IMG/VR virus record: IMGVR_UViG_3300022602_000027
DNA: 64,000 nucleotides
Source of the DNA: a virus
Taxonomy: Duplodnaviria; Caudoviricetes
Direction: 5' to 3' (one strand)
The stretch's first letter is position 1, and every line of letters begins with the position of its first letter. The position numbers were made by a program, and so were the translations under genes. Shown piece by piece: positions 1 to 63,027 of the stretch. The notes beneath the pieces were generated by a model. That model did not search any database. It was not told the origin of the DNA and was given only the letters and a program-made list of their open reading frames with translations.

Positions 1-149
1 TAGTGCAAGCAGAAGCAGACGGACTTACAGATACAGTAACGGACATAGATGTAATGACCCTGGACGCTTAAGGGTTATTACAACAGGGGTTGACAAGGCT
101 CCTGTTTTCAGTTATAATACATACTTAAATTAATTAAACAGGAGCGACA

Positions 150-833
150 ATGTTCAAATTACTTTCTACAGCAAACCCCAAAATACAAAAGGGCACCAAG
201 CTGGGCTATCTCAGCTTTATCCTGCATCTTGCGCCTAGTACTTTAAGCGGCAAGAACACTTGCCCTAAGGCTACACCCGGTTGCATCGCCGCTTGCCTTA
301 ATACAGCAGGCAGAGGCGGTATGTTTAAAAAGGGCGAAACGACTAATGCTATTCAAAAGGCACGTATCCGCAAGACTAAACAGTACTTTGATGAGCGCGA
401 GCAGTTCCTAGCAGACTTAGAAGCAGATATCCGCAAGGCTATTAAATTTGCGGCCAAGCAGGGTTTGACACCCGTATTCCGTTTGAATGGTACTAGTGAC
501 TTGAGTGTAGAAAAGTGGGGCATTATTGAAAAGTTCCCTACTGTACAGTTCTATGACTACACTAAGGTCTTAGGACGTAAGGTTAGCCACTTGCCTAACT
601 ACCACCTTACATTTAGTAAGGCAGACGGCAATGACGCTGATGTTGCAGAAGCATTGTTGCAGGGCATGAGCGTGGTGGCAGTGTACGATGAAATTCCTGC
701 GGGCGTTCCTAGTGCAGACGAAACAGACTTGCGCTTTTTGGACCCTAAGGGCATTATGCTTGGCTTAAAGGCTAAGGGTCGTGCTAAGAAGGACTACAGT
801 GGATTTGTTATCCGCATTAAGGAAGTGGCGTGA
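150..833 (+). CDS. GP88-like phage protein (radical-SAM-like Cys motif)
   Basis: CPKATPGCIAAC, FRLNGTSD, FYDYTK, DETDLRFLD and GLKAKG motifs typical of the phage GP88 family; own promoter and RBS. Confidence 0.75.
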   Translation: MFKLLSTANPKIQKGTKLGYLSFILHLAPSTLSGKNTCPKATPGCIAACLNTAGRGGMFKKGETTNAIQKARIRKTKQYFDEREQFLADLEADIRKAIKFAAKQGLTPVFRLNGTSDLSVEKWGIIEKFPTVQFYDYTKVLGRKVSHLPNYHLTFSKADGNDADVAEALLQGMSVVAVYDEIPAGVPSADETDLRFLDPKGIMLGLKAKGRAKKDYSGFVIRIKEVA

Positions 834-1057
834 AGACTAACGAAGTGATACAGTGGGTAGGAACGACATTCATCTTAATGATGTATGCCATAATGAACTT
901 CTTTCCTGAGTTCTATCCCTGGAACATTGTTACAGGCCTAGCAGGGGGCATCTGCTTCTTTGCTTGGGCGTGGCGTGTGGCTAATAGACAACAAATGATA
1001 ATCAACGGTGTGGCAATAGCCCTATGCTGTCTAGGGTTATATAAGGTGTGGGGTTGA
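830..1057 (+). CDS. Small membrane protein (about 3 TM)
   Basis: Hydrophobic 75 aa; GTGA overlap with upstream stop. Confidence 0.7.
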   Translation: MKTNEVIQWVGTTFILMMYAIMNFFPEFYPWNIVTGLAGGICFFAWAWRVANRQQMIINGVAIALCCLGLYKVWG

Positions 1058-1114
1058 CAAGAGCAAGGGTTGGCACTATAATAGAGTTATTGTTAAACAA
1101 AAGGAGCGAAACTT

Positions 1115-1348
1115 ATGCGTACAATATCAACACTCAGGAATGGCAACATCTATCAGATGGACATCAAAGAAGCCATTGAGATCGTAGAAGCTTACAAACG
1201 GGCTAACGGCCATCCTGGTATGTTGGAAGCGGTAATGGAGATGGGTGACTTGGTTGCACTGGATGAACTACCCACTATCCAGAAGGTTGCTTATCGCAGG
1301 TTTATGAAGGATATGCAGGCTCTGTTCGCACCCAAAGAAGTGGCGTAA
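1115..1348 (+). CDS. Hypothetical early protein
   Basis: Promoter 1054, RBS 1103. Confidence 0.75.
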   Translation: MRTISTLRNGNIYQMDIKEAIEIVEAYKRANGHPGMLEAVMEMGDLVALDELPTIQKVAYRRFMKDMQALFAPKEVA

Positions 1349-1358
1349 ATGCAACGAT

Positions 1359-1381
1359 CAACCCTACACTCTGTAGGGTTG
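1359..1381 (+). repeat. Promoter-associated stem-loop CAACCCTAC-ACTCT-GTAGGGTTG (copy 1)
   Basis: Perfect 9-bp inverted repeat directly upstream of the -35 at 1383; related copies at 2298-2320 and 7317-7339. Confidence 0.85.
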
Positions 1382-1437
1382 GTTGACCAAAAGTAGGATC
1401 AGCAGTATAATAAACACTTAGCAACAAAGGAGCACAT

Positions 1438-1509
1438 ATGGAATGTACACATTGTCGCAAGTGGCGCTGGAATGGATTTAAGAGCTGTCCTACAGCACCA
1501 AAGTCCTAG
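1438..1509 (+). CDS. 23-aa Cys/Trp-rich micro-ORF (MECTHCRKWRWNGFKSCPTAPKS)
   Basis: Below ORF-track cutoff; own promoter (1383/1406) and AAGGAGC RBS at 1427. Confidence 0.5.
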   Translation: MECTHCRKWRWNGFKSCPTAPKS

Positions 1510-1576
1510 TAAAAAAAAAGGGTATTATAGCCCGGGGTTGACAAATGGTTAAACCGGTGCTATAATAAAGACATAG

Positions 1577-1773
1577 ACAGTTAGAAAAGCATTAAAGGTT
1601 ACCTACACCACTAGGCGCCTAGAGAGATGGAAGCGTACCGACGGGTACCTGGTATCTAGGGCATGAAGGCTTCGAGCAACGGTGGATAAGGCAGGCAGTA
1701 ATGACGAAGGCACTAGCACTATAGACGGTATAGAGCAAGTAGTCCGGAGTTCCTTTAGTTCTTCTCTAACTGT
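1577..1773 (+). ncRNA. Unknown structured ncRNA, copy A
   Basis: Starts just after promoter 1538/1561; 22-position terminal helix 1577-1598/1752-1773; internal GACG(G)-loop hairpins; homologous to 2361-2564 with compensatory changes; no RBS or ORF. Confidence 0.75.
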
Positions 1774-1776
1774 TAG

Positions 1777-1947
1777 AGTGAAGGGTACTGCCCAAAACTT
1801 GGTGAGGATTGCACGGTAATACCGTCGGTACATGGCTAACGGAGACGTTCTGTTAGTTACACCAGTCCAAAGGATGCCAAGAAGTGGAGCCCAGGGAGTA
1901 AGCAACCTGTGGGTTCCGGACAAAGGGAAGCTTCAGTACATTTCACT
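1777..1947 (+). ncRNA. Additional structured domain (copy A locus only)
   Basis: Closing helix AGTGAA..GTACTG/CAGTAC..TTCACT; hairpins ACGGT/ACCGT, TAACGGA/TCTGTTA, GGAGCCCA/TGGGTTCC. Confidence 0.5.
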
Positions 1948-1961
1948 GTAACAGTTACACA

Positions 1962-2013
1962 GGGTGTTGGCCTGAGGGCTGAACATTAAACGAGGTGCTC
2001 GCTCAGCCCGCCC
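1962..2013 (+). ncRNA. Conserved ~52-nt three-way-junction module, copy A
   Basis: GGGTG...CGCCC closing stem, TTAAAC linker; homologous to 2576-2627. Confidence 0.6.
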
Positions 2014-2085
2014 AATCTAATTTGTGGTTGACTTTTGAAACTTTTGGTGTTACAATAGTATTTTAAACAGTAAGGAGCGAAACTT

Positions 2086-2286
2086 ATGTATGATATCGTA
2101 TCAAACCCAATCCCACGCAGTGGGTTCTATGCTACACCTTCAGACTTCAAAGAGCTGACTGCTGTCGTAGAGGCACTGAGCCCACAGGAAAAGGCCTTGG
2201 TCTATCCCTACATGATGATGGCGTTGAACACTTGCAACAAGGCAGTAGAAGACAAGATTTTGAACAGAGAGATATTTTGTAGTTAA
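2086..2286 (+). CDS. Hypothetical early protein
   Basis: Promoter 2028, RBS 2074. Confidence 0.75.
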   Translation: MYDIVSNPIPRSGFYATPSDFKELTAVVEALSPQEKALVYPYMMMALNTCNKAVEDKILNREIFCS

Positions 2287-2297
2287 AAAACAACAAT

Positions 2298-2320
2298 CAA
2301 CCCTACACTCCGTAGGGTTG
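2298..2320 (+). repeat. Promoter-associated stem-loop (copy 2)
   Basis: CAACCCTAC-ACTCC-GTAGGGTTG abutting the -35 at 2322. Confidence 0.85.
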
Positions 2321-2360
2321 GTTGACAAACAAGAAGAAAGAGACTATAATAGATACATAG

Positions 2361-2564
2361 ACAGTTAGAAAAGTGTTAAAGGTTACCTAGGCGTGCTAGG
2401 TAGTATAACCCAGCGGAAGTGACGTATCTCCGACGGGAGACCGCAGTTATACTACACGAAGGCTTCGAGCAACGGCACAGCACCTAGCAGTAATGACGAA
2501 AGCACAGAACGGGAAGACGGATCCCAAGTATGTAGACTGGAGTTCCTTTAGCGTTTTTCTAACT
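2361..2564 (+). ncRNA. Unknown structured ncRNA, copy B
   Basis: After promoter 2322/2345; uninterrupted 20-bp terminal helix (3 G-U) 2363-2382/2545-2564; TAGTATAAC/GTTATACTA and TCTCC-GACG-GGAGA stems. Confidence 0.75.
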
Positions 2565-2575
2565 AGCTGGTTACA

Positions 2576-2627
2576 GGGTGCTGGCCTAAGGGCCTAGCAT
2601 TAAACGAGGAGCTTGCTCTGCCCGCCC
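2576..2627 (+). ncRNA. Conserved three-way-junction module, copy B
   Basis: Homologous to 1962-2013 with stem substitutions. Confidence 0.6.
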
Positions 2628-2638
2628 AATCGATTTAT

Positions 2639-2701
2639 GCCCGGGAATCCACGCCAAGATCGCAACTTGGGGCAGTGAGCAGGTGAAACTCCTGCGAGGG
2701 C
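2639..2701 (+). ncRNA. Small structured element with GNRA-type loops
   Basis: GCCC/GGGC closing stem, CCAAG..GCAA..CTTGG and GCAGG-TGAAACT-CCTGC hairpins. Confidence 0.4.
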
Positions 2702-2771
2702 GCCAATGGTTGACATACTGTCGAAATGACAGTATAATATGTTTTTAACGTAAACAAAAGGAGCGAACTTT

Positions 2772-3257
2772 ATGGGTACAAGAAGCATGATCGGTATTGA
2801 GAATCCTAATACTGGCGTTGTCAAAAGCATCTATTGTCACTGGGATGGCTATCTACAGCACAATGGCTCAATCCTCAACAAACATTACAGCAACAGCCCT
2901 AAGGTCAATAACTTGATCGCACTGGGTGACTTGAGCTCATTGCGAGCAGAGATTGGTGAGAAGCACAGCTTCAGCCGTTTGGACACTGATCTAAGCGATG
3001 CAGAGTGGGACAAGCTCTACGGCGATATGTGTACATTTTACACACGCGACAGAGGCGAGACTGCACCTTACAAGCGTTTTGATAATGCTAAGGCCGCAGT
3101 GGACTACTACGATGGCAGCTGGTGCGAATACTTTTACTTGTTCAAGTACGATGAGGACTTGGAAACAGGCAAGTGGTACTTCCGTACACGCGAGTCAGGA
3201 CGTTGGAAGCGTTTGAGCACAGCATTGAAGCAGTTCAAAGAAGACGAAGTAGCATAA
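2772..3257 (+). CDS. Conserved phage hypothetical protein (MGTRS...IYCHWDGY type)
   Basis: Promoter 2710, RBS 2760; motif familiar from many phage early proteins. Confidence 0.8.
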   Translation: MGTRSMIGIENPNTGVVKSIYCHWDGYLQHNGSILNKHYSNSPKVNNLIALGDLSSLRAEIGEKHSFSRLDTDLSDAEWDKLYGDMCTFYTRDRGETAPYKRFDNAKAAVDYYDGSWCEYFYLFKYDEDLETGKWYFRTRESGRWKRLSTALKQFKEDEVA

Positions 3258-3320
3258 ACCAGAGGTGGCCCCGCTGTTAAGCGTACACATAGCAGGGGGC
3301 TACTAGACTAAGGAGCGAAC

Positions 3321-3587
3321 ATGACAGGCTTTCAAAGTAAACGAGCAATGGCTAACTCCAAAGGAGCAGGTATGAAAACAGTAAGAGTTGAAACACTATT
3401 AACACAAGAGATTGAAGTTCCTGATAACTGGGAGCGTGAGGATGTGCTAGACTTCCTAGCTGAATACCAATCATTCCGTGGAGCCTTCCAGGGTGTAAGC
3501 AATGAAGAGCAGACAGCCCGCATCGTTGACTTGGGCGTAATCGAAGAAACCATTAAAGAACTAGGAGAAGAAGCATATGACGACTAA
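3321..3587 (+). CDS. Hypothetical early protein
   Basis: RBS 3312; possible second start at 3372 behind AAGGAGC. Confidence 0.7.
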   Translation: MTGFQSKRAMANSKGAGMKTVRVETLLTQEIEVPDNWEREDVLDFLAEYQSFRGAFQGVSNEEQTARIVDLGVIEETIKELGEEAYDD

Positions 3588-3786
3588 ATTGAGTGATGTA
3601 GCCTACGATATTGAACAGCTATACATTGAAGGCTACAGGCCCGTAACCATTGCATCACAGCTGGAAATTCCATTGAGTATGGTTTATGATTGGCTAGAGT
3701 CTGTTAACGTAGAAGCAGACGGCGGATTTGTAGATGTAACCAATATGAGCGATGACGATATCAAGTACATGCTCAACAGCGATTAA
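3577..3786 (+). CDS. Small acidic protein, possible HTH
   Basis: GYRPVTIASQLEIPLSMVYDWL resembles a helix-turn-helix; GGAG RBS. Confidence 0.6.
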   Translation: MTTKLSDVAYDIEQLYIEGYRPVTIASQLEIPLSMVYDWLESVNVEADGGFVDVTNMSDDDIKYMLNSD

Positions 3787-3789
3787 AAC

Positions 3790-3835
3790 ACTAGTTCGCT
3801 CCTAGTAACCCGTGGGGGGACGGGCAAATCCCCCC
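3790..3835 (+). ncRNA. Anti-RBS hairpin followed by possible H-type pseudoknot
   Basis: ACTAG-TTCGCTC-CTAGT (3790-3806); CCCGT-GGGGGG-ACGGG-CAAAT-CCCCCC (3809-3835). Confidence 0.55.
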
Positions 3836-3942
3836 AATCCTTTCTAGATATCCTTATGGATTGTAGGGTTATCTAGAAAGCGGTTGACAGCAGAGCGGTT
3901 TGAGCTTATAATTGAGTTATAGTTAAACAAAAGGAGCGATAC

Positions 3943-4209
3943 ATGAACATTAGCACACTAGAACAGTATGTGGAGAACAAGAACAAGTGGCGAGCCGTAT
4001 TCAACCAAAAGCCTTTGAGCTTGTTGAACAAGCAGGATCGCCAGGCTATCGCTGATGGCATTGACAGCGAGATGAGCCCAGAGAACCTTACCTGCGATGG
4101 CGAACTGCCTCGCTCAGTAGTTCAACTCAAAATGCGTAATCTTACTCGTTGTGCTGAGGAACTGCTCAGCATTGATCCTTCAGTAACCTTTTACGAAATG
4201 GGAGTCTAA
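3943..4209 (+). CDS. Hypothetical early protein
   Basis: Promoter 3884, RBS 3933. Confidence 0.78.
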   Translation: MNISTLEQYVENKNKWRAVFNQKPLSLLNKQDRQAIADGIDSEMSPENLTCDGELPRSVVQLKMRNLTRCAEELLSIDPSVTFYEMGV

Positions 4210-5826: not shown

Positions 5827-6009
5827 ATGTTCCTACAGTACGAAGTATGGGCTATCACCGACCAGCATGAAGAGCTGGTCGAGTGTGTACCTACCCTAAA
5901 GGAAGCAGAAGAGATAGCAGAGAACGAACGTGAATTTTGCGATGAGGTTTACATCGTAGAAGACGCAGATGGGGACTTGAAAGAGATTAGACGATTCCAG
6001 GGCCTATAG
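5827..6009 (+). CDS. Small acidic hypothetical protein
   Basis: 60 aa ORF whose TAG stop lies inside the tRNA 5' end. Confidence 0.6.
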   Translation: MFLQYEVWAITDQHEELVECVPTLKEAEEIAENEREFCDEVYIVEDADGDLKEIRRFQGL

Positions 6010-6076
6010 CTCAGTTGGTTAGAGCAGAGGACTCATAATCCTTTGGTCCCTGGTTCGAGTCCAGGTGGGCCCACCA
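6000..6076 (+). tRNA. tRNA-Ile2 (CAT anticodon, lysidine type; Met less likely)
   Basis: Acceptor GGGCCTA/TGGGCCC + ACCA, D arm GCTC/GAGC, anticodon arm GAGGA-CTCATAA-TCCTT, GGTTCGAGTCC T arm; pattern resembles enterobacterial ileX. Confidence 0.9.
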
Positions 6077-59482: not shown

Positions 59483-60200
59483 AATTGGTTGGTGTCCATG
59501 GCCTGAAAAAACACATTTAACTAATGACGGCCCTACTACTTATTACGGTCATGCCGAAATATTAGCTATACCTCCTCAGAAATTAGATACTTGGGATAAC
59601 AGTCATTCAGGGTTTACTAAATGCCCTGCTTTTAGTACATACGTTTCTAACACCTACATGATTTTTTCTAACATTGATGTTGAATTAACTTGGGATGCTA
59701 CTAACAAAGTATTAAACAGTAATTTACCCCAACATGCATATAATACTCATATTAATTTGCATTATCAAGATTTTGTACCAGATGTAGATCCTCCAATTGT
59801 TGCTTTAATGTCTAGTATGTTGTTTGTGGCCGACCAGCCAGTTGTAATGGAAATGACACCTCCTTACAATCATATCGACCCAGCATGGCGTATGATGCCC
59901 GGGTCTTTTAATATCTATAATTGGTTTAGACCAATTATACCTACTTTTGAAATGTTACATACAAAAGTATCTATTAAGCGTGGACAACCATTAATGTATG
60001 TTCGTTTTAAAACTGAAAATTTTAAAGATAATATTGTATTAGAACGTATAGAACGTACAGATGAACTAGAACATTTAGTTAATAGTTGTTTGTCAGTTAA
60101 AACATATCAACCATCCTTAAGTTGGCGTATTGCTAACTCTTTAAATCCCATTAGACCTAGGAAACTTTTAAAATCATGCCCACTAAAGAAATGGCTTTAG
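59472..60200 (+). CDS. Hypothetical protein (possible dUTPase-like beta fold)
   Basis: KCPAF..MPG..IKRGQPLMYV pattern seen in oxygenase clusters. Confidence 0.55.
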   Translation: MAVKIGWCPWPEKTHLTNDGPTTYYGHAEILAIPPQKLDTWDNSHSGFTKCPAFSTYVSNTYMIFSNIDVELTWDATNKVLNSNLPQHAYNTHINLHYQDFVPDVDPPIVALMSSMLFVADQPVVMEMTPPYNHIDPAWRMMPGSFNIYNWFRPIIPTFEMLHTKVSIKRGQPLMYVRFKTENFKDNIVLERIERTDELEHLVNSCLSVKTYQPSLSWRIANSLNPIRPRKLLKSCPLKKWL

Positions 60201-61417
60201 ATCTATTTAGACCGAAGACTTTAGTAGTTGTTGGTGCAGGAACTGCCGGGATACAAGGGGTATGTCATTATCTTGCGTATCTAGCCAGTCATGGTTGGAT
60301 AATAACTCTTATTCATTCTCCTAAAATTAATATATTAGGCATAGGAGAAAGTACCAATCCTCCATTTGTAGAAGCATTAGAGGATGGAGCAAATTTTAAT
60401 ATACTTGATGATACAGAAAAACTAGATGCTACATTAAAATTTGGAACCCATTATGTAAATTGGAGGGACAATCCCTTTACGGTTCCTGTGCTTACTGGAC
60501 ATGCCGCTTTGCACATTAATACTTTTAAATTAAAAGAGTTTGCACTTCCACGTTTAAAATCAATATGGGGAGACAAATTTCAAATTATCGAAGGAACAGT
60601 CTCTGTATTAGAAAATTACGAAGAATCAGTACGTGTTGTAGTCGACGATAAAGATTATTATTTTGATTATGCTGTTGATAATCGAGGATTTCCAGATTCG
60701 TATGATGACTATAATATAATTGAAGACAATCCAGTTAATCATGCACTCATCCACAACACCCCTGAACGACTTGATTTAAATGCTACACTACACCAAGCAA
60801 CACCAGACGGATGGATGTTTGGTGTTCCGTTAACATCGAGAACTAGTTATGGGTATTTGTTTAACGACAAATTAACCACAGTAGAACAAGCAAAAATTAA
60901 TTTTAGTAAAGAAATTAATGTACCTGTTGAAGAATTAAACAATATAGAATATAAATTTAAATCATATTATGCAAACAAAGTCTTAGATAAAAGAATTATT
61001 AAGAATGGAAATAGGGCTGTATTTTTTGAGCCTATGTTTGCCAACAGTTTATGGTTGTATAAAAATATTGATAAGGCATTTATTAGTTACATGAAAGGAT
61101 TTTTTACAGAAGAAAAAACAAATGAAATATTCAATAATATATCTCAAGATGTAGAAGAGTTAATTTGTTATTTTTATCATGGCGGCAGCATTTATAACAC
61201 AGAATTCTGGCAACTTGTTAAGCCCTATGCTAGTAAAAAATTAGAAAATAGTAGATCTTTTAATGTTATGAAAAGTCTAATGCGTCGACAATATAAGTTT
61301 AAACAATTTGATCCAACAGTAAACGAATACAGTTGGGTGTTTGGTGAAAAACACATGTTTAGTATAGATGAAAAATTAGGTTATAATTATTTTTCTGCCC
61401 CAGATGAAAACAATTAA
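60191..61417 (+). CDS. Flavin-dependent halogenase-like protein (divergent)
   Basis: GAGTAG, GIGEST, ATLK, GWMFGVP and FFEP. Confidence 0.8.
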   Translation: MALDLFRPKTLVVVGAGTAGIQGVCHYLAYLASHGWIITLIHSPKINILGIGESTNPPFVEALEDGANFNILDDTEKLDATLKFGTHYVNWRDNPFTVPVLTGHAALHINTFKLKEFALPRLKSIWGDKFQIIEGTVSVLENYEESVRVVVDDKDYYFDYAVDNRGFPDSYDDYNIIEDNPVNHALIHNTPERLDLNATLHQATPDGWMFGVPLTSRTSYGYLFNDKLTTVEQAKINFSKEINVPVEELNNIEYKFKSYYANKVLDKRIIKNGNRAVFFEPMFANSLWLYKNIDKAFISYMKGFFTEEKTNEIFNNISQDVEELICYFYHGGSIYNTEFWQLVKPYASKKLENSRSFNVMKSLMRRQYKFKQFDPTVNEYSWVFGEKHMFSIDEKLGYNYFSAPDENN

Positions 61418-61440
61418 ATATCACAAATATAGGAAATAGT

Positions 61441-63027
61441 ATGCCAAGTATAGACAAAATTGTAGTTTTAGGTGGAGGTTCAGCTGGGTGGATGACAGCC
61501 GCAACACTTAAACATCATCTTCCCAACAAAGAAGTATATGTAATTGAAAGTCCCAACATACCAACTGTAGGAGTAGGTGAAAGCACTATTGGTCAAATCA
61601 ATGCTTGGCTACATGATTTAGATATTAAAGACGAAGATTGGATGGTTCATTGTGATGCTAGTTATAAACTAAGCATCAAATTTACTGACTTTTACAAAGA
61701 AAATTCAGGAGGATTTCATTATCCATTTGGACTTCCACATGTCGATGGCACTATATTTGGAATTAATGACTGGTACTTTAAGAAAATGAAGTATCCAGAA
61801 ACTCCTAACAGCGATTACGCTTATACTTATTATCCAGCTACTATGCTTTCTGAGGCAAATAAAATTATCACAAATGAAGATAATAAAATGCCGTCATGGA
61901 GATTTAGCAATGATACTGCTTATCATTTTGATGCGGCAAAATTTGGTGCATGGTTAAGAGACGGGTATTGCAAGCCTCGAGGAGTTATACATATTCCTAG
62001 CGAAGTAATTAGTGTACAAACTAATGATAAAGGTGTTGAGAGTCTTACATTAACTGACGGTAGTTTAGTTACTGCTGATTTGTTTATTGATTGCACAGGA
62101 TTTAAGGCAATGCTAATTGATAAAGCATTAGGAGTTCCTTTTATACCCTTTGATCATATGTTGCCTAACAACAGTGCATGGGCTACAAGAATTCCTTATC
62201 AAGACAAAGCAAAAGAATTACAACCATATACTAATTGTACTGCTATTGAAAACGGTTGGGTTTGGAACATTCCTCTTTGGAGTCGAACAGGAACTGGGTA
62301 TGTTTACAGTGATAAGTTTGTAAGTGATGCAGATGCCTTAGAACAATTTAAAAATTATTTACGCAGACGTGATCCTGTTGTTATTCCAGAAGAAATAATT
62401 GATACTTTAGAATTTAAAAATATCAAAATGCGCATTGGTATACATAAAGAAATTTATTCTAAAAATGTATGTGCTATTGGTTTAGCGGCTGGATTTATTG
62501 AACCTTTAGAAAGCAATGGATTATTTACTGTACATGAATTTGTTACTAAATTAGCAAAAACTTTGCGAAGAGAAAGTATTAGTCAGTGGGATAAAGACAC
62601 GTTTAATACTAGTTGCCGTAGAGATTTTAAAACATTTGCACAATTTGTTTCATTGCACTACGCTCTAAGCCAAAGAGATCAAACAGCATATTGGCAAGCA
62701 ATAAATGAAAAACAATTTAGTCTTGACATGGTTAATGACAATATAAACAAATCCGGGTTTGAAGATTTAATGTTTAGTAGAATGAATGGCAATACATACA
62801 CATTAGATTTAGGCGGAATACCTGCTATTGCTGCCGGCATGGGATATTTTCCATTAGACGAAAGTAGTGTTAAACGCAGTATGTATGTTAATAATCATAC
62901 AATGTTACGTGAAGTTATAGAAAATACACTCGAACGCTGGAAAACACAAGAAGCAGAATGGCAATCTATTGTCAACGAAGCTCCTACCCTACTTGAATTT
63001 TTATCTGAAATGTATGCTTCTAAGTAA
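61441..63027 (+). CDS. Tryptophan halogenase family protein
   Basis: GGGSAG, VGEST, ASYKLSIKF, FIDCTGF, GWVWNIPL and FIEPLES. Confidence 0.9.
   Translation: MPSIDKIVVLGGGSAGWMTAATLKHHLPNKEVYVIESPNIPTVGVGESTIGQINAWLHDLDIKDEDWMVHCDASYKLSIKFTDFYKENSGGFHYPFGLPHVDGTIFGINDWYFKKMKYPETPNSDYAYTYYPATMLSEANKIITNEDNKMPSWRFSNDTAYHFDAAKFGAWLRDGYCKPRGVIHIPSEVISVQTNDKGVESLTLTDGSLVTADLFIDCTGFKAMLIDKALGVPFIPFDHMLPNNSAWATRIPYQDKAKELQPYTNCTAIENGWVWNIPLWSRTGTGYVYSDKFVSDADALEQFKNYLRRRDPVVIPEEIIDTLEFKNIKMRIGIHKEIYSKNVCAIGLAAGFIEPLESNGLFTVHEFVTKLAKTLRRESISQWDKDTFNTSCRRDFKTFAQFVSLHYALSQRDQTAYWQAINEKQFSLDMVNDNINKSGFEDLMFSRMNGNTYTLDLGGIPAIAAGMGYFPLDESSVKRSMYVNNHTMLREVIENTLERWKTQEAEWQSIVNEAPTLLEFLSEMYASK

Follow-up and report, generated by a model that had tools for sequence, protein, structure and literature searches.

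A probable new family of structured RNA genes linked to the tRNA arrays of uncultured freshwater jumbo phages

Near the left end of a 64,000-nucleotide stretch of DNA from a virus of the Caudoviricetes (IMG/VR record IMGVR_UViG_3300022602_000027; hereafter the window) lie two units of about 200 nucleotides (nt), A and B, which very probably represent a real and new family of structured RNA genes. The RNA is structured and non-coding, and its compensatory base changes are real. On balance we favor the interpretation that A and B are paralogous genes for an uncatalogued, stable, trans-acting RNA of uncultured freshwater jumbo myoviruses. A sequence-only reading of the window had described two promoter-driven units lacking ribosome-binding sites at these positions, and the coordinates, promoters and coding check all agree with that description.

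Two promoter-driven units and their relatives

The units and their promoters are as follows:

1538..1566, + strand: promoter of unit A, TTGACA-17-TATAAT with a TG extended -10, matching the sigma-70 consensus at 12/12 positions
1577..1773, + strand: unit A RNA, the A-type paralogue, from the 5' through the 3' strand of closing helix P1; covariance model score 163.6 bits
2322..2350, + strand: promoter of unit B, TTGACA-17-TATAAT, 12/12 match to the sigma-70 consensus
2361..2564, + strand: unit B RNA, the B-type paralogue; covariance model score 242.6 bits

In both units P1 begins 7-10 nt from the promoter, and transcription of unit A is predicted to start at approximately 1573-1575. Promoter-like sites are frequent in this part of the window, with 12 in positions 1-4200 compared with 5.6 +/- 2.5 in shuffled sequence. 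Neither unit has a Shine-Dalgarno sequence, and no + strand open reading frame (ORF) longer than 45 amino acids lies within either. The long closing helix proposed for each unit is present; in A it joins 1577-1598 to 1752-1773 through 22 base pairs (bp), and in B 2361-2382 to 2545-2564 through 20-22 bp. The folds are more stable than those of shuffled sequences (z = -2.1 for A and -4.3 for B), and the 18-mer GAAGGCTTCGAGCAACGG, for which 0.02 occurrences are expected, is found exactly twice in the 64 kb.

Every junction word that the sequence-only reading had listed as shared occurs in both units, and its three examples of co-varying stems were right; they correspond to the tip of P3 (GUACC/GGUAC in A versus CUCC/GGAG in B), to P5 (CUAUA/UAUAG versus GGGA/UCCC) and to P2b (CCAC/GUGG versus GUGC/GCAC). 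The same reading spoke of a tandem duplication. There are indeed two copies side by side, but because they are only about 70-76% identical in pairwise alignment and are separated by a 66-amino-acid ORF with its own promoter, we regard them as diverged paralogues and not as the product of a recent duplication. The A-then-B order was found again in three other contigs (L181, L192 and L168; L-numbers label the retrieved contig loci that carry the RNA or were tested for it).

Tandem pairs were also noted in their own right at L181 (5901-6337), L192 and L337 (80-530). In L181 an A-type copy is followed by a B-type copy only 54 nt away, with complementarity between the 3' strand of the first P1 and the 5' strand of the second. 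The second copy in L337 has lost both of the loops discussed below as contact partners.

To collect homologues, we scanned IMG/VR and the JGI metagenomes for exact words and gapped patterns and filtered the results with a covariance model, R1, built from four copies. The search established that a family exists: R1 gave about 125 matches, representing 82 distinct sequences, all of them on contigs of uncultured phages or metagenomes. The 18-mer alone had five exact matches, one of which (L005) was a chance occurrence in a GC-rich coding region. The hits of a 17-mer scan were mostly due to chance, but from among them R1 drew the first new homologues (L130, L131, L136, L139, L140, L142 and L154). 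A 14-mer scan likewise gave mostly chance matches and no new member by R1, and a pattern based on P1 added only chance loci.

Outside these metagenomic collections the RNA was not detected. BLASTN in its distant mode found no match for positions 1400-2800 among 50,697 GenBank phage records, R1 found nothing in the complete jumbo phages PA5oct and Phosso, and a pattern scan of one genome for each of 185,579 prokaryotic species returned a single match that the covariance model rejected. The sequence-only reading had been unable to match the units to tRNA, tmRNA, 6S, SRP, RNase P, group I/II introns or the small ribozymes, and a search of Rfam 15 (4227 families) gave no counterpart either: the whole window contained only a tRNA-Met at gathering score, positions 1400-2800 gave two unrelated weak matches at E <= 10, and five loci with divergent members gave tRNAs only.

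Across the family the constant heart consists of the 5' domain and the word GUAAU, and the 3' arm occurs in three forms. Type I is that of the window, type II reads GACCGUGCA...GACGK...GUAGAnAUAGAUGCACAAUGGUUCC, and type III is separate; exchange between members also extends to P4 and to the outer portion of P1. Type III defines a subfamily of five IMG/VR loci (L307, L283, L325, L323 and L305), in which P3 has a remodelled form, P4 has grown greatly and no GACGN loop is present on the 3' arm.

Fold, covariation and a probable loop-loop contact

Our structure model was derived by hand from the variants, replacing an RNAalifold consensus that mis-paired the P2/P6 region, and was projected onto A5, a MAFFT alignment of 28 sequences. 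Standard pairs fill 88.3% of 1618 cells, compared with 72.8 +/- 0.6% in shuffles (0/500 reach 88.3%), a percentage that is somewhat inflated, since A5 is a MAFFT alignment and the structure placed on it came from constrained folds of the 28 sequences themselves. When partners were moved by 1-3 columns only 33-43% of cells paired; this slide control is biased toward the model, since the structure came from the same 28 sequences. The presence of multiple pair types at single positions is evidence independent of this caveat: pair 155:195 is G-C in 20 sequences and A-U in 8, and pair 168:183 is C-G in 11 and U-A in 11. Both sides have changed in 44/60 pairs, and every helix covaries except P2a, the invariant UUAC:GUAA.

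The elements of the fold, with unit A given in full, are:

1577..1598, + strand: P1, 5' strand, pairing with 1752-1773; 7/9 inner pairs with double changes
1597..1615, + strand: GGUUACC, P2 5' strand (1602-1606), P2b 5' strand (1608-1611) and junction UAGG (1612-1615)
1618..1660, + strand: P3 arm, a long irregular hairpin with internal loop GGAAG and tetraloop GACG (1640-1643)
1661..1695, + strand: junction CAUGAAG (1661-1668), mini-hairpin P4 (1669-1677), AACG, P2b 3' strand (1682-1685) and P2 3' strand (1691-1695)
1698..1710, + strand: GUAAU, then P6 5' strand GACGAAGG (1703-1710)
1711..1751, + strand: P5 arm (1711-1743) with loop GACGG (1724-1728), then P6 3' strand CCGGAGUU (1744-1751)
Unit B, + strand: P1 2361-2382 with 2545-2564; GGUUACC 2381-2387; P3 2401-2454 with loop GACG 2432-2435; P4 2462-2470; GUAAU 2490-2494; P6 2495-2502 with 2537-2544; P5 arm 2503-2536 with loop GACGG 2516-2520

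P1 is 20-22 bp long in the clade of the window, is interrupted in L173, and has a quite different outer sequence in relatives of the tRNA-array type. It ends in a tight, almost linker-free three-way junction made of the near-invariant words GGUUACC and GUAAUGA; in A5, GGUUAC and GUAAUGA are invariant in 28/28 sequences. The GG/CC end of P1 abuts UUAC, and UUAC:GUAA would form the 4-bp P2a, which also abuts P6 (in unit A, GUAA is able to pair with UUAC at 1599-1602). Because these two words never vary, P2a is a predicted helix.

The 5' arm continues through P2 (variants CUAGG/CCUAG, CCUAC/GUAGG, CCAG/CUGG and CUAGUA/UACUAG) and P2b (CCAC/GUGG, CCGC/GCGG, GUGC/GCAC and CUGU/ACAG), both of which covary, into a second junction that bears P3 and P4. 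This junction is purine-rich and nearly invariant, being composed of UAGG (28/28 in A5), CAUGAA(R), whose CAUGAA is nearly invariant in A5, and (GA)GAAGCGR or AACG. P3 is an irregular hairpin of 17-20 bp with a C-GNCG-G tetraloop at its tip, where 5/5 pairs covary; the loop reads GACG, GCCG, GUCG, GAUG or GGCA across the family. P4 ranges from a 2-bp stub to insertions of 40 nt or longer, with longer hairpins in L142, L173, L177 and L136.

In the type I 3' arm, P6 pairs 5'-GAYGAARG with 5'-CYGRAGUU: three Watson-Crick or wobble pairs come first, then a 3x3 purine loop in which GAA faces GRA, then two further pairs. P6 covaries at positions 3 (C-G, U-G or U-A), 7 (G-C, A-U or C-G) and 8. Two conserved one-base bulges follow, and then P5 with its GACGG loop (GACGN in the family). 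Double changes are found in 11/14 pairs of the P5 arm helices, and the 3x3 purine loop GAA/GGA is conserved.

The sequence-only reading had pointed to GACG loops as possible kissing elements that might multimerise the RNA. The precedent it invoked is real, in that GACG tetraloops promote RNA-RNA dimerisation in retroviruses (PMC516450). In the lake-phage RNA the P3 and P5 loops are mutually complementary through the C3-G4 dinucleotide that each contains, and it is likely, judging from how the two loops change together, that they pair. The CG:CG core is kept in 67/74 main-family sequences, with GACG, GCCG or GUCG in P3 and GACGG, GACGU or GACGA in P5. In L136 and L344, which are 71% identical overall, GAUG occurs with GACAG, so that a U-A pair replaces a C-G pair (UG:CA). 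In L286, L328 and L333, GGCA occurs with GAUGC, and an A-U pair replaces a G-C pair (CA:UG); here a third, facultative pair also changes, from A-U to G-C. L286 is 72-73% identical to L328 and L333, which are 95% identical to each other. Among the 74 sequences none has a change in one loop only; the exceptions, L313 and the second tandem copy of L337, lack both motifs.

All five members of subfamily III lack both loops, and in them a 3'-arm loop, GUGGUG..., has 6-8 bp of complementarity to the enlarged-P4 loop GACACCAU; alternative complementarities are GACACCAU with GUGGUGUU, or UACCUG with CAGGUG. A different long-range pairing may replace the P3:P5 kiss in this subfamily. Most likely, the loop pairing would serve as a conserved clamp holding the 3' arm to the 5' domain, with pairing between molecules also compatible with the sequences. 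Because the partners are two different loops and subfamily III appears to have a substitute contact, an intramolecular clamp is at least as likely as multimerisation. Of the earlier proposal, then, the loop pairing is supported, and the step to multimers is not.

Association with tRNA genes, transcripts and neighbouring elements

The family is strongly linked to phage tRNA gene arrays. We recorded the tRNA genes within 200 nt downstream of each of the 82 distinct copies. A tRNA-Asp(GUC) gene on the same strand follows 30 copies and a tRNA-Glu(UUC) gene 8, with tRNA-Leu and tRNA-Gln following one copy each; 39 copies have no tRNA within this distance and 3 run off the contig end. Many of the tRNA-linked copies are only 0-12 nt from the tRNA, and many copies have their place within arrays of 10-31 tRNA genes. 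The fit is exact in L296 and L327, where tRNA-Glu (-4 nt) and tRNA-Asp (0 nt) border the RNA directly and base-pairing in P1 joins the ...ACCA end of the first tRNA to the opening G residues of the second. Copies flanked in this way must presumably be released by tRNA processing. An individual consensus promoter lies immediately upstream of 33/82 copies. These private promoters, the tRNA-less copies and the placement within tRNA islands together suggest an autonomous gene that travels with tRNA genes.

Neither unit of the window has a tRNA within 200 nt downstream, and each is followed by a related module:

1959..2022, + strand: 'tail' module 3' of unit A, in the same transcription unit and outside the RNA family
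2570..2635, + strand: 'tail' module 3' of unit B, 86% identical to 1959-2017

In approximately 20 related contigs, which form the clade of the window, this module of about 64 nt (GGGUG...GGCC hairpin...CAUUAAAC...GCCCGCCC) lies between the RNA and tRNA-Asp; the phage of the window has retained both tails and lost the tRNA. A different tail, about 70 nt long, is found in the tRNA-array clade and may contain a pseudoknot (CCACU/AGUGG plus GAGAG/CUCUC).

Contigs from four lake metatranscriptomes cover unit A (1544-1763) and unit B (2402-2573) with 0 differences, and the same metatranscriptomes contain contigs of three other family variants. This is compatible with transcription. As the contigs are of low depth, carry neither strand nor end information, and cover neighbouring genes similarly, a discrete RNA species is so far a prediction; one contig begins upstream of the predicted start, so that read-through or DNA carry-over is possible.

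These features of the transcript data count against our interpretation, as do several other points. No terminator was found 3' of the units in the window, which bears on how the 3' end is made, and none of the ten neighbouring ORFs has an RNA-binding or RNA-processing Pfam domain that might mark a partner protein. The loop-loop pairing draws on only two compensatory lineages, and two sequences are without the contact. To these are added the inflation of the pairing percentage and the invariance of P2a described above.

The genome that carries the units encodes a large terminase, a tail sheath, a DnaB-type helicase and large virion proteins within the window. The terminase shares 51% identity with that of PA5oct and that of Phosso, both jumbo myoviruses, and a related 156-kb contig, rated 44% complete, suggests a genome of several hundred kb. 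DNA of the window was found in freshwater and lake metagenomes from 16 studies. Small + strand ORFs follow one another through positions 1-12 kb, each behind a consensus promoter, and this part looks like an early region read by host RNA polymerase. ARAGORN called a single tRNA gene in the window, tRNA-Met at 6000-6076.

Several further elements were observed near the units. An insertion of 190 nt (1765-1960) separates unit A from its tail; relatives lack it, and L001 and L004 join A directly to the tail. It is predicted to form a closed multi-branch fold with a long closing helix (-75.6 kcal/mol, z = -5.0, 0/200 shuffles as good), occurs only in the phage of the window among the retrieved loci, has no Rfam match, and contains UACCGUCGGUAC, the antisense of the unit A P3 tip (GUACCGACGG). 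Behind the tail of unit B, positions 2636-2703 resemble a tRNA remnant: a 4-bp acceptor-like helix (GCCC/GGGC) is followed by GCCA, with an anticodon-arm-like CCAAG-AUCGCAA-CUUGG, a T-arm-like GCAGG-UGAAACU-CCUGC and no D arm. ARAGORN did not call this element, and its fold energy is no better than that of shuffles; it lies directly behind the RNA in L223, and similar hairpins with a UUCGCUA loop are found 3' of tRNA-Asp in L131.

A repeated cassette (1360-1411 and 2296-2350) holds the hairpin CAACCCUACAC-UCYG-UAGGGUUG, whose 3' arm leads straight into GGTTGAC, the -35 box of the promoter that follows. With no T-run on the + strand the hairpin does not qualify as a classical terminator, and it may be a processing or protein-binding site. 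Just upstream of the unit A promoter, a 23-codon ORF (MECTHCRKWRWNGFKSCPTAPKS; 1438-1509), rich in Cys and Trp, has a good ribosome-binding site and its own promoter (1383-1411), and could encode a micro-protein. The first ORF of the window (150-833) encodes a GP88-family protein (PF17338, E = 1e-35) behind a perfect consensus promoter at 90-118. At the far end (60176-63027), two adjacent genes match a tryptophan halogenase PHROG (phrog_2928; E = 1e-63 and 4e-147), an unusual auxiliary function for a phage.

Possible roles of the RNA and comparison with known systems

On the interpretation that we favor, host RNA polymerase can start at the perfect sigma-70 promoter 7-10 nt before P1, and the RNA folds into P1, the three-way junction, the P2/P2b-P3-P4 arm and the P6-P5 arm. 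The P3:P5 contact would then clamp both arms into a compact body in the manner of a tRNA elbow or of the Alu domain in signal recognition particle (SRP) RNA. Its ends would come from transcription initiation or from the maturation of neighbouring tRNAs (with RNase P acting at a downstream tRNA), possibly with RNase III cutting in P1. The surface through which the RNA works would be made up of the invariant strands of the junctions together with the purine loop, and might bind a protein, or the ribosome or translation apparatus, early in infection, as a scaffold or decoy. We put this last step forward only tentatively, as one possible mechanism. The more specific suggestion of the sequence-only reading, a decoy for a host defence protein or for RNA polymerase, found no support, and the branched fold is unlike that of 6S RNA.

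The likeness to the SRP Alu domain (helices 2-3-4), and more loosely to the tRNA elbow, is one of architecture. In both RNAs a closing helix leads into a three-way junction, two arms are locked by a short loop-loop pseudoknot, and the most conserved strand (UGU in SRP, GUAAUGA here) joins the two arms. The pseudoknot has 3 bp in human and 5 bp in B. subtilis SRP RNA (PMC4231752), and would have 2-3 bp in the lake-phage RNA. We do not claim homology: the phage RNA has no conserved UGU (its joining strand is NNGUAAUGA, with UGU in few members only), no helix 5 and no S domain; its arms exceed those of SRP RNA several-fold in length, and a second junction is present in one of them. The Rfam SRP models did not match the units at E <= 10.

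A bolder version of our interpretation would have the RNA be a protein-free mimic of a translation-apparatus ligand, with a compact body locked at its elbow that is similar to tRNA or the SRP Alu domain, and matured by the tRNA machinery, which docks early on the host ribosome, or on a defence enzyme that handles or cleaves tRNAs, and so redirects or protects translation; a heteromer of A and B through their identical loops is conceivable. We consider this version quite unlikely.

An assembly made of RNA alone, in which P3 and P5 loops of different molecules pair head to tail, or A pairs with B, to give dimers, chains or closed assemblies, is an unlikely alternative for which there are nevertheless precedents. 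The compensated complementarity of the loops fits pairing between molecules as well as within them, and paralogues with identical loops lie side by side in at least three contigs. The packaging hairpins of gamma- and alpharetroviruses present the same C-GACG-G and pair through the CG dinucleotide of the loop (PMC516450). There the contact is between two genomes, whereas the partner in the lake-phage RNA is a second, different loop (GACGN, 5-7 nt) in the same RNA type, and the second base of the P3 loop is free (A, C, U or G), unlike that of the retroviral GACG. ROOL and GOLLD, elaborately structured RNAs of phages or prophages that often lie beside tRNA islands, assemble into cages through kissing loops (PMC12286853). 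Each is 3-4 times larger than the lake-phage RNA, their multi-pseudoknot folds of 500-800 nt are unrelated to its fold, and models of the RF03087/RF01998 type gave no match. At about 200 nt the RNA is far below the 600-800 nt of the cage formers, and a kiss of 2-3 bp would by itself be weak for a stable assembly. Furthermore, both arms that bear the loops leave a single junction, an arrangement usual for an internal clamp, and in subfamily III the putative partner loop has moved into the enlarged P4 of the same molecule.

The proximity of tRNA genes raises another alternative, that the RNA is a cis-acting element of tRNA precursors, a structured spacer or leader that guides how the tRNA-Asp or tRNA-Glu downstream of it is processed, folded or expressed and has no role of its own. 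The 30 copies before tRNA-Asp(GUC) and 8 before tRNA-Glu(UUC), many of them 0-12 nt away, are consistent with this, as is the ability of P1 to pair the 3' end of an upstream tRNA with the first bases of the next (L296, L002). Set against it, the downstream tRNA varies by locus (Asp, Glu, Leu or Gln), and a spacer would need far fewer than the approximately 60 conserved base pairs and approximately 45 invariant bases that the RNA has. Because 33/82 copies have their own promoter, 39/82 have no nearby tRNA, and both window copies belong to the latter group, a trans-acting gene accounts for the family better than a leader does, and we judge a purely cis-acting role very unlikely.

Stable RNAs encoded among phage tRNA genes are known from T4, whose rnaC and rnaD (species 1 and 2) are, according to the T4 annotation, non-coding RNAs matured with the tRNAs of the cluster, and from T5, whose RNAX is alike in this respect. 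The T4 RNAs have 119-139 nt, RNAX about 800 nt and the lake-phage RNA about 200 nt. R1 run with filters off on T4 69000-74000 reached at most 8.3 bits, in short matches to hairpins only, and revealed no similarity to rnaC or rnaD.

Catalytic or ligand-binding cores typically have invariant junction strands amid helices that co-vary freely, and in the window the missing terminator implies that a processing step must make the 3' end. A ribozyme, for example one that excises itself from a polycistronic transcript, or a ligand sensor, with the purine-rich junctions as active site or pocket, is still highly improbable: no Rfam ribozyme or riboswitch matched at E <= 10, host RNase P and RNase III together with flanking tRNAs would suffice for processing, and no consistent expression platform or regulated gene lies 3' of the RNA.

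A relative of Y RNAs that binds host Ro60/Rsr through the GACGAARG helix is hardly credible. Y RNAs occur in phages, and those of the YrlA type carry GNCGAAN0-1G in the stem with the 3' end, where it is thought to contact Rsr (PMC4201824). The lake-phage RNA is likewise phage-borne and has a terminal stem, next to which a helix carries a GNCGAA-like word: GACGAAGG and GACGAAAG in P6 fit the motif, and P6 pairs with the 3'-terminal segment. GACGAARG is present in 18/28 aligned members and GAUGAA in the other 10, and type II and III 3' domains lack the motif altogether. The units contain no tRNA-like T or D arm and no T-arm consensus, which also sets them apart from tRNA and tmRNA, and have no Rfam Y RNA or tRNA match; TROVE (PF05731) had no match in three partial carrier genomes (10-44% complete), in which positive controls responded.

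Other likenesses were considered and set aside. The rod with a central bubble resembling an open promoter, by which 6S RNA is recognised, is absent from this branched fold with two junctions, and Rfam 6S models gave no match. In retrons, inverted repeats a1/a2 flank the msr-msd RNA and a reverse transcriptase gene lies immediately downstream; the units do have a closing helix, but the small ORFs downstream have no reverse transcriptase domain (tRNAs occupy this place in relatives). We rejected an Asp-codon or T-box-like reading of the loops, in which GAC/GAU would read the anticodon of a neighbouring tRNA-Asp, for P3, whose second base varies (GCCG, GUCG, GGCA), many copies being without tRNA-Asp. 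A T-loop reading of GGC-UUCGA-GC was rejected because the first loop base is U or C and the hairpin is replaced by unrelated stems. Word likenesses to K-turn, sarcin-ricin, hammerhead, RNase P and SRP S-domain motifs did not fit the strand topology and had no support from Rfam.

Phage tRNA islands hold several abundant, elaborately folded RNAs of unknown role, among them T4 species 1 and 2, T5 RNAX, ROOL and GOLLD. To these the lake-phage RNA adds a compact class of about 200 nt, with 82 variants, covariation in nearly all helices, a tertiary contact that covariation supports, and three interchangeable 3' modules joined to a single invariant core. Because it is small, has a strong consensus promoter and is placed precisely between tRNAs, it lends itself to structure determination, oligomer tests and pull-downs in the laboratory, and could thereby become an entry point to the roles that tRNA-island RNAs play during infection. 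Catalogues of RNA families, in turn, still miss widespread RNAs of uncultured jumbo phages.

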